Source of the DNA: Occultella glacieicola | Lineage (GTDB): Bacteria; Actinomycetota; Actinomycetes; Actinomycetales; Beutenbergiaceae | Length of the DNA stretch: 64,000 bases | Direction: 5' to 3' | Assembly (NCBI RefSeq): GCF_004353825.1 | Contig: NZ_SMNA01000002.1 | Location: 124,001-188,000, forward strand | Part shown: piece by piece, positions 4,884-40,206 of the stretch | Layout of the letters: every line of letters starts with the position of its first letter | Numbering within the stretch: the first letter of the stretch is position 1 | Notes under the pieces: model-generated | What the model saw: only the letters and a program-made list of their open reading frames with translations | Database searches by the model: none | Told to the model about the DNA's origin: nothing | Position numbers and translations under genes: made by a program

Positions 4884-5020
4884 GTGCTCCTCCGCAACAT
4901 TGCTCGGATCCCGTTGGGTGCAACTGTCCCCCAACCTTGCATCACCCGCAGGGTCCGCGCCACTGCTTACGGGCTTCGGCCCGGGCCGACGACGCGCCGG
5001 GCGTCGGCTAGAGTCGAGCC

Positions 5021-5053
5021 ATGGTCCTGTGCATCCGCCTGTGTTGTTGTTGA
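5021..5053 (+). CDS. Leaderless polycysteine leader peptide MVLCIRLCCC upstream of cbs
   Basis: ATG GTC CTG TGC ATC CGC CTG TGT TGT TGT TGA. A -10 TAGAGT at 5009-5014 ends 6 nt before the ATG. Precedes cysteine-pathway genes. Confidence 0.8.
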   Translation: MVLCIRLCCC

Positions 5054-5222
5054 GCCGAGCTCCGACCCACACCGCGCGGCGCGTTCGCCTCAACCGGCAC
5101 GCCGTCGCACCCCGCCTGACCGCACGGCCCGACGACGGGCCGGCCGCAGCCGATCACACCCTCCCGAACACGGGCCGGTCCCGGCCAACACCCCGCATCC
5201 AGACCCACGCAAGGACACCGAG

Positions 5223-6587
5223 ATGAAGTACGCAGAGTCCATCGTCGATCTCGTCGGCAACACCCCGCTCGTCAAGCTCAAGCACGTCACTGCTGGGCTC
5301 GAGGCCACGGTGCTGGTCAAGGTCGAGTACTTCAACCCGGGCGGGTCCAGCAAAGACCGGATCGCGACGAGGATCATCGAGGCGGCCGAGGCCGAGGGCA
5401 AACTGGGCCCGGGTGGCACGATCGTGGAGCCGACCTCGGGCAACACCGGCGTCGGGCTGGCACTGGTGGCCCAGCAGCGCGGCTACCGGTGCGTGTTCGT
5501 GGTGCCGGACAAGGTCGGTGAGGACAAGCGGGCCGTGCTGCGCGCGTACGGCGCCGAGGTCGTGGTCACCCCGACGTCGGTGGCCCCGGACAGCCCGGAG
5601 TCCTACTACTCCGTCTCCGACCGGCTCACCGCTGAGATCCCGGGCGCGTTCAAGCCGAACCAGTACGAGAACCAGAACGGGCCACGCTCCCACTACGAGA
5701 GCACCGGACCCGAGATCTGGCGGGACACCGACGCGAAGATCACGCACTTCGTGGCGGGCGTCGGCACCGGCGGCACGATCAGTGGGACCGGCCGCTACCT
5801 CAAGGAGGTCTCCGACGGCGCCGTCACCATCGTCGGCGCCGACCCGGAGGGCTCGGTCTACTCCGGCGGCACCGGCCGCCCCTATCTCGTCGAGGGCGTC
5901 GGTGAGGACTTCTGGCCGGGGGCCTACGACCCATCGGTGGTCGATGAGATCATCGCCGTCTCCGACGCCGACTCGTTCGCCATGACGCGGCGGCTCGCGC
6001 AGGAGGAGGGCATCCTCGTCGGCGGGTCCAGCGGCATGGCCGTGGTGGCCGCGCTGCGCGCCGCGAAGAACCTCGGGCCCGACGCCGTGGTGGTGGTCCT
6101 GCTCCCGGACGGCGGCCGCGGCTACCTCGGCAAGATCTTCAACGACGGCTGGATGCGTTCCTACGGGTTCGCCCCGGATTCCGAGGAGCGCACCGTCGCC
6201 GATGTGATCAGCGCCAAGACGGGGCATCTGCCGGACCTGGTGCACGTGCACCCGGCGGACACCGTGCGGGAGGTGATCGACATCCTGAACGAGTACGGCG
6301 TCTCCCAGGTGCCGATCCTGTCCGCGGAGCCGCCGGTGGTGATGGGTGAGGTGGCGGGCTCGATCAGCGAGCGCACCCTCGTCGATCTCGTGTTCTCCCG
6401 TGAGGTCGAGCTGACCGACCCGGTCTCGAAGGTGATCGGCCCGCCGCTGCCCCTGATCGGCGCGACCGAGTCGATCCGCGCCGCGCGGACCGCGCTGGCC
6501 GACGCGGACGCCCTGCTCGTCACCGAGGCGGGCAAGCCCGTCGGCGTCCTGACCCGCCACGACCTGCTCGCGTACGCGGGCGTCTGA
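5223..6587 (+). CDS. cbs: Cystathionine beta-synthase (PLP enzyme with C-terminal CBS domains)
   Basis: [44 protein letters not shown]-terminal CBS pair; RBS AAGGA. Confidence 0.95.
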   Translation: MKYAESIVDLVGNTPLVKLKHVTAGLEATVLVKVEYFNPGGSSKDRIATRIIEAAEAEGKLGPGGTIVEPTSGNTGVGLALVAQQRGYRCVFVVPDKVGEDKRAVLRAYGAEVVVTPTSVAPDSPESYYSVSDRLTAEIPGAFKPNQYENQNGPRSHYESTGPEIWRDTDAKITHFVAGVGTGGTISGTGRYLKEVSDGAVTIVGADPEGSVYSGGTGRPYLVEGVGEDFWPGAYDPSVVDEIIAVSDADSFAMTRRLAQEEGILVGGSSGMAVVAALRAAKNLGPDAVVVVLLPDGGRGYLGKIFNDGWMRSYGFAPDSEERTVADVISAKTGHLPDLVHVHPADTVREVIDILNEYGVSQVPILSAEPPVVMGEVAGSISERTLVDLVFSREVELTDPVSKVIGPPLPLIGATESIRAARTALADADALLVTEAGKPVGVLTRHDLLAYAGV

Positions 6588-6602
6588 GGAGAGGAACCCA
6601 CC

Positions 6603-7793
6603 ATGCACGATGACCACGGGAACGACGCCCACAGTGCCCACAGTGCCCACAGTGCCTTTGATACTCGGGCCATCCACGCCGGTCAGGCGTTCGACCCGAC
6701 CACCGGCGCCGTCATCCCCCCGATCTACCAGACGTCCACGTTCGTCCAGGACGGCATCGGGGGCCTGCGCGGCGGCTACGAGTACAACCGCAGCGCGAAC
6801 CCGACCCGCGACGCGCTGCAGACCCAGCTCGCCTCACTCGAGGGGGCCGCGCACGGGTACTCGTTCGCCTCCGGCCTCGCCGCCGAGGACGCCCTGTTGC
6901 GGGCGGCGATGCGCCCCGGCGACCACATCGTGCTCGGCAACGATGTGTACGGGGGCACCCACCGGCTGATCTCGAAGATCCTCGGCGCGTGGGGCATCGA
7001 GATCACCACCGTGGAGATGGGCGACCTCGACGCGGTGCGCGCCGCGATCCGGCCCAGCACGAAGGTCCTCTGGGTGGAGACCCCCTCCAACCCACTCATG
7101 AAGATCACCGACATCGCGGCCCTGGCGGCGCTCGGTCACGACTCCGGCCTGCTCGTGGTCGTCGACAACACGTTCGCCACACCCGCCCTGCAGACGCCGC
7201 TCACCCTCGGCGCCGACGTGGTGGTGCACTCCACGACGAAGTACCTGGGCGGTCACTCCGACGTGCTCGGCGGCGCCGTGCTGCTCAGCGACGACGAACT
7301 CGCCGAGAAGCTCGGCTTCATCCAGTTCGCGGCCGGCGCGGTCTCGGCTCCGCTGGACGCCTGGCTCACCACCCGCGGCATCAAGACCCTCTCGGTGCGG
7401 ATGCAGCGGCACAGCGAGAACGCCCAGGCGATCGCCGAGCACCTCGCCGCTCATCCGGCCGTCGAGCGGGTCTACTACCCCGGTCTGCCCGGCCACCCGG
7501 GGCACGAGATCGCCGCCGCCCAGATGTCCCGGTTCGGTGGCATGGTCTCGCTCGGCCTCACGGCCGGCCCGACGGCGGCCCGCACCCTCGCGGAGAGCAC
7601 GCACCTCTTCCAGCTGGCCGAGTCGCTCGGTGGGGTCGAGTCGCTCATCGGGTATCCGCCGGAGATGACGCACGCGTCGGTGCGCGGCACCGAACTCGCG
7701 GTCCCGGAGAACGTGGTGCGGCTGTCCGTCGGGATCGAGGACGTCGGCGACCTGATCGCGGACCTGGACGAGGCGCTGGGCCGGCTCGGCTGA
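6603..7793 (+). CDS. metB: Cystathionine gamma-synthase/gamma-lyase
   Basis: [56 protein letters not shown]. Confidence 0.93.
6627..6653 (+). repeat. Perfect 9-bp tandem repeat (GCCCACAGT)x3 encoding AHS AHS AHS in the MetB N-terminus
   Basis: Read directly in the sequence. Confidence 0.9.
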
Positions 7794-7856
7794 TTCGAAG
7801 CGTGGGTCGTGCACCCGCCTACCCACGTTTCCCGTCAGGAGAACACGGACGGTGCG

Positions 7857-39546: not shown

Positions 39547-39636
39547 GCATCGGCTGAGGCGGCGCCGGCGCCGGTCCCCACGGACCCGACGCCGGCTCCG
39601 GCATCGCCGGCGAGGCCGGCGTGGCCGCCGGCCGCC

Positions 39637-40029
39637 TCAGCCGGCGTTGATCACCGGCAGCCCGGCGGACCGCCAGGCGGTGAAGCCACCGGTGACGTAG
39701 GACGGCCGGGCGATCCCGACGGCGTCGAGCCCGGTCGCGAGTTCGGTCGCCAGGGTCCCGTCCTCGGTGAGCAGGATCGCGTCGGTGTCGCGGCCGGTGT
39801 GCACGAGCCAGGTGGGCAGTTCCCGCGGGTGGATCACGACGGCGCCGAGGTCGGGATGGATCGCGCCGCTGCGCGACCGCGTCGCGTCCGGCCTCAGGTC
39901 CACCACGACCGCCCGGGAGTGGAGGACGGACTGGAAGGCGGCTCGGGCGCTGACGGCCTGATCCGCGGCCGTGTGGATGGGGCCCGCATTGAGGACGATG
40001 TCCCAGGCGGTGCCGGTGGTGATGGCCAT
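39637..40029 (-). CDS. Rhodanese-like domain protein lacking any cysteine
   Basis: VVVDLRP, C-terminal VTGGFTAWRSAGLP rhodanese signature; active-site loop reads ILLTEDG. An alternative in-frame ATG lies at 40080. Confidence 0.72.
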   Translation of the reverse strand: MAITTGTAWDIVLNAGPIHTAADQAVSARAAFQSVLHSRAVVVDLRPDATRSRSGAIHPDLGAVVIHPRELPTWLVHTGRDTDAILLTEDGTLATELATGLDAVGIARPSYVTGGFTAWRSAGLPVINAG

Positions 40030-40080
40030 GTCATGGCTCCAGGGGGTGGGAGGGTGGTGCCGGATGGGTCGGGTCCGCAT

Positions 40081-40140
40081 TCAGCGGCAGCAACACATCA
40101 GACACGCCCGCGTGATGCGGGTCCGCACTCCGTTCTCCAT
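40081..40140 (-). CDS. Cys-rich leader peptide MENGVRTRITRACLMCCCR
   Basis: Manual translation: ATG GAG AAC GGA GTG CGG ACC CGC ATC ACG CGG GCG TGT CTG ATG TGT TGC TGC CGC TGA; directly upstream of the rhodanese-like gene. Confidence 0.78.
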   Translation of the reverse strand: MENGVRTRITRACLMCCCR

Positions 40141-40189
40141 GGACACAGACAATCAGGTGGCAGCTCCCCCGACGACCACCCCGCGGCTG

Positions 40190-40206
40190 GTCTCACCACG
40201 TGAGAC
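40190..40206 (-). promoter_or_regulatory. Palindromic TF box GTCTCA-n5-TGAGAC
   Basis: Perfect 6-5-6 dyad; shares the 13-mer CACGTGGTGAGAC with 7861-7873. Confidence 0.65.

Follow-up and report, generated by a model that had tools for sequence, protein, structure and literature searches.

The window analyzed here is a stretch of 64,000 nucleotides (nt) from Occultella glacieicola, an actinobacterium of the family Beutenbergiaceae, and covers positions 124001-188000 of its contig (NZ_SMNA01000002.1) in a genome of 5.34 Mb with 71% G+C. Three short open reading frames (sORFs) in this window end in clusters of Cys codons, and each lies on the same strand as, and 5' of, genes connected with sulfur (Table 1). 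sORF1 precedes cbs and a metB-like gene, which are genes of reverse transsulfuration; sORF2 precedes a putative operon of ATP-binding cassette (ABC) transporter and luciferase-like monooxygenase (LLM) genes; and sORF3 precedes a single gene for a rhodanese-fold protein. The frames had been pointed out in an initial annotation, which read them as cysteine-responsive leaders of sulfur genes, and all three are present where it placed them, 169, 156, and 51 nt before the respective genes. Judged from sequence and context, the three sORFs are most likely cysteine-sensing leader peptides, and for at least sORF1 and sORF3 we consider a cysteine-responsive role fairly probable.

Genes were called with a codon-usage caller trained on this genome, and protein identities were taken from Pfam and NCBIfam. 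For one window protein, the nearest named records are from Occultella gossypii and O. aeris (80% identity), followed by Ruania, Pseudactinotalea, and metagenome-assembled genomes (MAGs) of Beutenbergiaceae.

Table 1. Features of the three leader loci and of the cysK-cysE pair, in window positions (SD, Shine-Dalgarno sequence; aa, amino acids)
Feature	Position	Strand	Details
Inverted repeat GCCGACG-N10-CGTCGGC	4985..5008	+	GC-rich; adjoins the -10 box of sORF1
-10 hexamer TAGAGT	5009..5014	+	6 nt 5' of the sORF1 ATG (-12 to -7)
sORF1, MVLCIRLCCC	5021..5053	+	Candidate leaderless Cys-codon leader peptide
Spacer after sORF1, 169 nt	5054..5222	+	C-rich and G-poor (C 48.5%, G 27.2%); conserved hairpin GGCCCG-acga-CGGGCC; cbs SD AGGA
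cbs	5223-6587	+	TIGR01137, 620.7 bits, above cut-off
metB-like cystathionine gamma-synthase/lyase gene	6603-7793	+	NF005871, 654.8 bits, above cut-off
LysR-family regulator gene	7923..8807	+	Pfam HTH_1 and LysR_substrate; no NCBIfam model above cut-off
Putative organosulfur-scavenging operon, nine genes	8928..17226	-	Gene calls, Pfam, NCBIfam
Spacer after sORF2, 156 nt	17227..17382	-	C-rich (C 51%, G 28%)
Small hairpin GTCGGC-cctgac-GCCGAC	17393-17376	-	sORF2 stop codon inside the loop
sORF2, 37 aa, MTRSNLNRPAARRGSRAARMRCRECPCGRARMSCCRP	17383..17496	-	Ends ...MRCRECPCGRARMSCCRP; candidate Cys leader peptide
Perfect inverted repeat ACCGATA-N9-TATCGGT	17552..17574	-	Centre ~67 nt 5' of the sORF2 ATG; candidate regulator site
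cysK and cysE	34260..35778	+	TIGR01139, 456.5 bits; TIGR01172, 226.9 bits; between the sORF2 and sORF3 loci
Rhodanese-fold protein gene, 130 aa, no Cys	39637..40029	-	Single-gene target of sORF3
Spacer after sORF3, 51 nt	40030..40080	-	C-rich (C 51%, G 20%); SD GGAG
Predicted hairpin	40055..40107	-	5' arm, Cys tract; loop, stop codon; 3' arm, first ~26 nt of the spacer
sORF3, 19 aa, MENGVRTRITRACLMCCCR	40081..40140	-	Ends ...ACLMCCCR; leader family with core M-R-x-C-x-M-C-x-C
Inverted repeat GTCTCAC-gtg-GTGAGAC	40190..40206	-	Directly after the DoxX stop codon

Conservation of the short frames

The longest runs of consecutive Cys codons are CCC in sORF1, CC in sORF2, and CCC in sORF3. The initial annotation had named conservation of these runs in the upstream regions of relatives as a check, and the alignments show it: sORF1 is found in 4/4 Occultella genomes, sORF2 in the three genomes in which the region is assembled (in the fourth the assembly stops at a contig edge), and a frame of the sORF3 type at 14 of 18 distinct loci.

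sORF1 (ATG GTC CTG TGC ATC CGC CTG TGT TGT TGT TGA) devotes four of its ten codons to Cys, three of them consecutive at the C-terminus. In the alignment of the four genomes, 32 of its 33 columns are identical and a single Ile/Thr change is seen, with an identity of 23% in the stretch just upstream and of 75-79% in the spacer. The position of the TAGAGT hexamer, which is replaced by TACAGT in the Occultella relatives, predicts a leaderless transcript for this frame. Among 2,731 genes of this genome, boxes of the form TANNNT show a marked preference in offset from the start codon, with 183 genes at a 6-nt gap and 113 at a 7-nt gap against a background of 13.3 per offset, and this peak at 6-7 nt is the signature of leaderless mRNAs in this genome. 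The same geometry is found for 89 intergenic sORFs, five of which contain CC or at least three Cys residues; sORF1 is the only one with a C-terminal Cys run. On the other side of the sORF1-cbs promoter region, and divergent from it, lies a gene (3705-4883, minus strand) for a baeRF_family2 protein, which resembles archaeo-eukaryotic release factors (PF18844, E 3e-43). The occurrence of a release-factor-like gene beside a leader peptide is probably a coincidence.

In sORF2, five Cys residues fall within the final 16 positions. Across its Cys-rich half, 55 of 57 columns are identical, compared with 35% in unconstrained flanks, and a 3-nt indel leaves the frame intact; the middle part of the spacer that follows is variable and contains indels. 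The downstream operon encodes a lipoprotein of the SBP_bac_5 family (17226-15697), two permeases, two ATPases of the Opp/Dpp type, an SsuD-like LLM, an alpha/beta hydrolase, and an SfnG-like LLM, and its genes overlap or are at most 65 nt apart. The matches of the two LLM proteins score below the NCBIfam family cut-offs. For the substrate-binding lipoprotein, the search of 41 genomes returned no orthologue beyond the genus, and its other matches reach at most 37% identity. Support for sORF2 is the weakest of the three, and its status as a leader is less certain than that of sORF1 and sORF3. The inner part of sORF2 (RMRCRECPC..., 17439-17383, minus strand) begins like the Ruania-type leaders of the sORF3 family (RMRC[RS]S...), with a shared ATGCG-TGTCG pattern at the nucleotide level. 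This likeness is of low complexity, and it may or may not reflect a common origin.

sORF3 carries four Cys residues in its last seven positions and is the strongest case for conservation, which extends across several genera of Beutenbergiaceae. Searches for the rhodanese-like gene gave homologues in 15 of the 41 genomes and in 12 named records; nine of these 12 duplicate loci already found, as their upstream strings are identical, which leaves the 18 distinct loci. At the 14 loci that have it, the Cys-rich sORF ends 37-51 nt before the gene, and these include named records of Occultella, Ruania, Pseudactinotalea, Actinotalea caeni, and Beutenbergiaceae MAGs. Of the four loci that lack it, three belong to another genus, and the remaining one is a true, Cys-containing rhodanese of a different family. 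The core takes the form RACLMCCC[RA] in Occultella, MRLCEMC[TPR]C[SA] in Pseudactinotalea and Actinotalea caeni, and MRLCEMCC in two MAGs; at three of the four Ruania-type loci it reads ...AAMCD[FTS]CR[CR]R, and the fourth has a shorter frame that ends ...MRCLCTATSDSCR. N-terminal extensions of this family vary in length and remain in frame (26-36 codons in total in Pseudactinotalea and Actinotalea), and across genera the Cys codons vary synonymously between TGT and TGC while Cys is retained.

A separate motif, GCGAATGC(C/G), recurs upstream of the rhodanese-like genes in two other genera (loci L035-L038, L040, L043, and L044), in tandem in the Ruania-type leaders and as a single copy in a genus that has no clear Cys sORF. 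At L040, an overlapping frame, MRCVAVGCEC..., continues into the rhodanese-like gene. Two further ideas about the sORF3 locus were tried and dropped. The TGA of sORF3 is in frame with the rhodanese-like gene here, which raised read-through or selenocysteine incorporation; this was rejected because the spacers of the four Occultella genomes (51, 49, 48, and 50 nt) break the frame. A promoter of the SigR/SigH type was considered on account of a GGAAT before some starts of this type, and by eye no GTT stands at the 18-nt spacing of the consensus.

Spacer composition, codon usage, and genome background

The initial annotation had further stated that each sORF is followed by a C-rich spacer, and this holds when measured across the genome. 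The skew (C-G)/(C+G) is 0.28, 0.30, and 0.44 in the spacers after sORF1, sORF2, and sORF3, with C/G ratios of 1.8-2.6; upstream regions as skewed as these make up 0.8% (sORF1) and 0.07% (sORF2) of 1,380 regions in 150-nt windows and 1.1% (sORF3) of 2,881 regions in 50-nt windows, which places all three spacers in the top 0.07-1.1%. All 21 copies of the leaders that were examined in relatives keep the excess of C over G (skew 0.24-0.60), including all 14 spacers of the sORF3 family, which span that same range. The genome has a rho gene (638 bits, above cut-off).

Codon usage within the sORFs is also unusual. Eight of their 13 Cys codons are the rare TGT, which accounts for 12% of Cys codons in genes (p = 4e-5) and for 31% of intergenic TGY (p = 0.02). 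A single tRNA-Cys(GCA) is present among 55 tRNA genes, and all 11 proteins encoded by the three units are below the proteome median in their content of Cys plus Met. We take the TGT enrichment, the single tRNA-Cys, and the low content of Cys and Met as side evidence for sensing at the codon level and for a connection with sulfur limitation.

A scan of the whole genome for intergenic sORFs no longer than 70 codons that carry 3 or more Cys within 8 codons returned 60 such frames, 38 of them upstream of a gene on the same strand. The presence of three within 35.2 kb has a Poisson p of 0.008. Since Cys-dense sORFs alone are not rare, the case for the three described here rests on conservation and context.

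RNA structure and upstream boxes

The Cys tract of sORF3 is predicted to pair with the RNA that immediately follows it, leaving the stop codon in the loop. The RNAduplex energy of this hairpin is -23.9 kcal/mol, compared with a mean of -16.0 for shuffled sequences (z -2.64, p 0.013), and this best duplex involves the spacer right after the stop codon and excludes the SD. Tested in the same way, one sequence at a time, the pairing of tract and spacer is above shuffles (p<0.05) in eight of the 14 leaders of the family, with z between -2.0 and -3.2; these include three of four Occultella leaders and four of four from Pseudactinotalea and Actinotalea. The 3' arms diverge by lineage yet stay complementary to the 5' arm, which is constrained by coding. 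The three leaders contain no U-tract terminators (0 terminator-like sites), no terminator/antiterminator pairs, and no E. coli-type promoters. They also match no Rfam family, the one hit obtained being at chance level (E = 0.84).

It had been proposed that the leaders are combined with an upstream transcription-factor box and a LysR regulator, and neither part of this proposal is supported. The repeat upstream of sORF2 contains T-N11-A, the LysR-type motif, and 18 of its 23 columns are identical across three genomes of the genus; its sequence has no other perfect copy in the genome. The repeat upstream of sORF1 is of a common GC-rich type, with 15 intergenic and 208 genic matches at one mismatch or fewer, and in the four Occultella genomes its arms are kept and its internal spacer is variable. 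Nothing ties either repeat to the LysR gene of the window. As there is no common box, the three loci would form a regulon united by the shared signal alone, as in the ribulon concept. The third repeat, near sORF3, is likely a hairpin in the RNA or a terminator belonging to the upstream gene, since it directly follows the DoxX stop codon and tolerates a change compatible with a G-U pair, seen in one relative, the relatives retaining TCTCA-N5-TGAGA.

The cysteine-free rhodanese-fold protein

The 130-residue target of sORF3 has Met only as its initiator. All 12 members of its family match the Pfam Rhodanese model (PF00581) weakly, with a best E value of 3.1e-7, and the window protein scores 18.8 bits against a cut-off of 22.2. 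An AlphaFold2 model (mean predicted local distance difference test score 81.7) was searched with Foldseek, and the 28 matches in the PDB with E<=0.001 are headed by rhodanese domains such as 2hhg and 2fsx. The fold, as modelled, is therefore that of a rhodanese. No catalytic Cys can be present because the sequence has no Cys anywhere, and an alignment of the 12 family members contains no invariant Cys column; as read from its sequence, the protein is catalytically dead.

The gene order around it, consisting of a gene for an Rv2466c-like mycothiol-dependent reductase, a DUF6636-like gene, the Cys sORF, and the Cys-free rhodanese-fold gene, is conserved (39637-42042, minus strand, in the window; loci L035, L042, L080, and L089 in relatives), and the DoxX gene is inserted into this order in Occultella only. 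The arrangement suggests a thiol-redox module.

Proposed mechanism and alternatives

The three loci most likely form a cysteinyl-tRNA-sensing "Cys ribulon" like the mycobacterial one, by analogy with that system. Translation of the sORFs, stalling at their Cys codons, the direction of the response, and the effector step are inferences. In the proposed scheme, a shortage of charged tRNA-Cys would halt a ribosome at the Cys codons clustered close to the stop codon, and expression of the downstream sulfur genes would increase. The stalled ribosome would block the pairing of the Cys tract with the spacer, so that the start region of the downstream gene would open, and translation of that gene would then shield the C-rich leader RNA and prevent Rho from reaching the polymerase. 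With plentiful cysteine, the ribosome would exit at the stop codon, the leader would refold, and Rho would terminate transcription on the untranslated C-rich RNA. The loci would in this manner jointly constitute a ribulon that is independent of a transcription factor. The strong and conserved excess of C over G, together with the presence of rho, fits the idea of Rho action put forward by Seliverstov et al. in 2005.

A number of observations weigh against cysteine-sensing leaders of this kind. The mycobacterial precedent cited in the initial annotation is leaderless, and a signature of this kind is seen for sORF1 alone, with its TAGAGT box at a 6-nt gap: the start region of sORF2 has no TANNNT box and no recognizable SD, and that of sORF3 has no TANNNT box and no evident SD. 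The conservation of sORF1 and sORF2 is shallow, being confined to one genus with proteins that are ~95% identical; a comparable sORF precedes none of the 13 CBS orthologues from other genera (69-85% identity), and in one relative a Cys of sORF2 is replaced by Ser. Folding of the whole leaders is ordinary when compared with dinucleotide shuffles (z -0.07, -1.55, and -0.24 for sORF1 to sORF3), which rules out exceptionally stable leaders as in Ms5788A, and no pairing of the Ms5788A kind, between the Cys tract and the SD, was found for any of the leaders. Pairing of tract and spacer reaches p<0.05 for sORF1 in none of four genomes and is above shuffles for sORF2 in one of three; within the sORF3 family, it does so in one of four Ruania-type leaders and in neither of the two from MAGs. 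RNAalifold, applied to a MAFFT alignment of the 14 sORF3-type leaders, recovered no structure at the tract and only five pairs elsewhere (-2.33 kcal/mol), and the per-sequence duplex tests were used in its place.

The genomic background counts on the same side: there are 57 other Cys-dense sORFs, and the downstream genes of 20 of the 35 others that precede a same-strand gene are mostly unrelated to sulfur (pyruvate dehydrogenase E1, malic enzyme, a sugar kinase, TetR, and a resolvase, among others). Suggestive exceptions among these 20 are the genes for an NtaA/DmoA-type LLM, a SulP permease, and a TcyN-like ABC ATPase, and only the LLM case is conserved in relatives. The sORFs before the other two were rejected as regulon members, as the DNA of the first is not conserved and the second loses its start codon in relatives. 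Finally, a ribosome stalled upstream cannot alone hide a spacer of 156-169 nt from Rho; because of this, the Rho model needs the added step of downstream translation, which is itself presumed.

The conserved blocks could instead be non-coding cis-elements, such as an RNA hairpin or sites for Rho loading or protein binding, with the Cys frames incidental to a UGY-rich arm. The missing start signals of sORF2 and sORF3 and the location of the sORF3 Cys tract within a predicted hairpin fit this account, nucleotide conservation cannot tell RNA constraint from coding constraint, and the 60 Cys-dense intergenic sORFs of the genome speak for it and for a chance origin alike. We nevertheless consider it improbable, in view of the indels in multiples of three in sORF2, in the N-termini of the sORF3 type, and in a further sORF on contig C2 (see below), of the synonymous variation that leaves Cys in place across genera, of the start of sORF1 at the position expected for a leaderless mRNA, and of the lack of a match to any Rfam family in the leaders. 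Chance frames arising from GC-rich intergenic DNA near sulfur genes would be most plausible for sORF2, with its scattered Cys residues, its lack of a promoter or SD signal, and its conservation at genus level only, and the two candidates before the SulP and ABC ATPase genes, which turned out not to be conserved, speak for it too. As an explanation of the set, however, chance is very unlikely, given the close spacing of the three, the fact that conservation within each intergenic region is highest in the Cys-rich part, the conservation of sORF3 at family level, and the unusual spacer composition common to all three.

The sORFs, chiefly those of the sORF3 family, might instead encode functional Cys-rich micropeptides that carry thiols, persulfides, or metals and act as partners of the Cys-free rhodanese-fold protein. 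The non-Cys residues of the core are kept across genera, the proposed partner combines a rhodanese fold with the complete absence of Cys, and the neighborhood, with its Rv2466c-like reductase and, here, DoxX, is one of thiol-redox proteins. However, sORF1 and sORF2 are unlike sORF3 beyond their Cys clusters and yet are laid out alike in front of sulfur genes that are unrelated, the hairpin arm also takes in the conserved non-Cys codons, a stable product would be unusual for peptides as short as 8-10 residues, and in M. smegmatis this architecture has been proven to act as a regulator (10.1101/834739); this account is in our view quite improbable. Returning to leader peptides, a more elaborate form would posit a distinct version of the switch in Beutenbergiaceae, in which a Cys-tract hairpin with the stop codon in its loop is joined to a C-rich, Rho-loading leader. 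Stalling, refolding, and Rho would together set a sulfur-sparing regulon that includes the Cys-free rhodanese-fold protein, and the locus on contig C2 with its SAM-IV riboswitch and upstream open reading frame (uORF) would add joint sensing of methionine and cysteine. We offer this version tentatively, as it is rather unlikely to be right.

Comparison with known leader peptides

In mycobacteria, a ribosome stalled in a polycysteine tract keeps the tract and the SD of the following gene from pairing, as shown for Ms5788A only (Canestrari et al. 2020, 10.1101/834739). The precedent of a polycysteine attenuator is thus as the initial annotation gave it. The members of that Cys ribulon include Ms5788A/Rv0815A, Rv2334A before cysK1-cysE, and others, with tests carried out in M. 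smegmatis (10.1101/834739). The loci described here resemble it, as there portrayed, in having short unannotated sORFs that end in runs of Cys codons before several separate sulfur operons, a rhodanese-type target among them, in leaders that arose independently at each locus and need no dedicated transcription factor, and, for sORF1, in the leaderless geometry. They differ in belonging to Beutenbergiaceae rather than Mycobacterium, in that only one of the three sORFs looks leaderless, and in runs of 2-3 consecutive Cys residues where the mycobacterial example in that text has 8. Unlike in the Ms5788A mechanism outlined there, the tract does not pair with the SD, and in the sORF3 family it is predicted to pair with the spacer just past the stop codon. 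The cysK-cysE pair, which has a leader in M. tuberculosis according to the same source, has none here. While the Cys ribulon has been tested experimentally, the present loci are known from sequence and predictions.

Leader frames with Cys runs were predicted before the cys operons of Mycobacterium spp. and Propionibacterium acnes as well as before cbs of Bifidobacterium longum (Seliverstov et al. 2005, PMC1262725). Those frames lacked terminators; Rho action on pyrimidine-rich spacers was proposed, with tnaC as an analogy, and called weak by the authors. The idea that this leader logic operates outside mycobacteria had therefore already been put forward for Actinobacteria in that work. The loci in the window share with those predictions the Cys run near the stop codon, the absence of a U-tract terminator hairpin, the pyrimidine-rich spacer, and a cbs target. 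They go beyond the targets named there with the ABC/LLM operon and the Cys-free rhodanese-fold protein, and beyond its treatment of spacers, for which that work gave no statistics, with an excess of C over G that is measured genome-wide and in 21/21 copies. A uORF/Rho system has been described in E. coli (PMC12121999), and a 2026 paper again treats Cys leaders as mycobacterial (PMC13236596). The literature searched contained no report of such leaders in Beutenbergiaceae or Micrococcales, of a hairpin whose loop holds the stop codon, or of quantified C-rich spacers. The kind of leader is already known, from tests in M. smegmatis and from the 2005 predictions for several Actinobacteria, and these loci add a well-supported member.

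In the E. coli tna operon, free tryptophan acts on the nascent TnaC peptide at the stop codon, and attenuation is Rho-dependent. The leaders described here are like tnaC in combining a leader peptide with a C-rich untranslated spacer and no intrinsic terminator, and in that the action of Rho would depend on a ribosome retained close to the stop codon. They are unlike it in that the proposed signal is codon starvation and in that spacers of 156-169 nt far exceed the cover of a stalled ribosome; the role of Rho is putative. The attenuators of trp, his, and leu place clustered cognate codons in a short leader frame followed by a terminator/antiterminator pair. The clustered codons of the regulatory amino acid, in a short frame upstream of pathway genes, are found here as well, whereas the three leaders have no U-tract terminator or terminator/antiterminator pair.

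If the three sORFs act as proposed, ribosome-based sensing of cysteine would extend well past mycobacteria, where it has been tested, into another actinobacterial family, and the device would arise repeatedly before different sulfur genes, cbs-metB here and cysK in neighboring genera. It would also give a likely role in sulfur limitation to genes of unknown function, namely those for two flavin monooxygenases and the Opp/Dpp-type importer that accompanies them, and that for the Cys-free rhodanese-fold protein. The sORF3 family offers material from several genera, with a testable hairpin and a measurable C-rich spacer signature, for the question of whether masking of the ribosome-binding site or Rho is at work, and the analysis brings to notice short frames that annotation pipelines miss.

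The cysK-cysE pair and other leaders

The cysK-cysE pair of the window is preceded by no sORF with more than one Cys in this genome, in agreement with the initial annotation, and the different wiring of the two cysteine routes that it deduced holds for this genome. Genes like cysK in relatives from other genera, within the family and the order, do carry sORFs with Cys runs, located 110-146 nt upstream: ...GTACCLPCCL, ...LRRCCPTCCL, ...PRCCASRGCS, and ...APTCCRTCR. The loci concerned are L020 and L023, from one genus of the same family, L026, from another genus, and L022, from another family. The uneven occurrence of cysK leaders fits the turnover of leaders described for mycobacteria, by analogy with that group. 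Between the gene for a PadR-like regulator (33383-34012, minus strand) and cysK, an AT-rich patch contains a perfect 18-nt palindrome, CTAGTTTTCCAAAACTAG (34034-34051, plus strand). From its sequence and position, it is likely the operator of the PadR-like regulator and would be a transcription-factor input to cysK-cysE.

A fourth locus lies outside the window on contig C2 (141735-140299, minus strand). It begins with a SAM-IV (S-adenosylmethionine) riboswitch (RF00634, 102.7 bits, C2:141735-141620), which is followed after 35 nt by an SD-led sORF rich in Cys and Met, MGISIRELTTTPLRVSRPMCCCPMPAMSAMPVQA, then by a spacer of 141 nt and the gene for the NtaA/DmoA-type LLM monooxygenase. The MCCC of this sORF is kept in three other Occultella genomes, with in-frame indels of 9 and 18 nt. 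Judged by its layout, this leader may be a combined sensor of SAM and of Cys/Met codons. Within the window, two divergent tRNA genes are found at 29108-29181 (minus strand) and 29249-29319 (plus strand), matching Rfam RF00005 with 66 and 72 bits.

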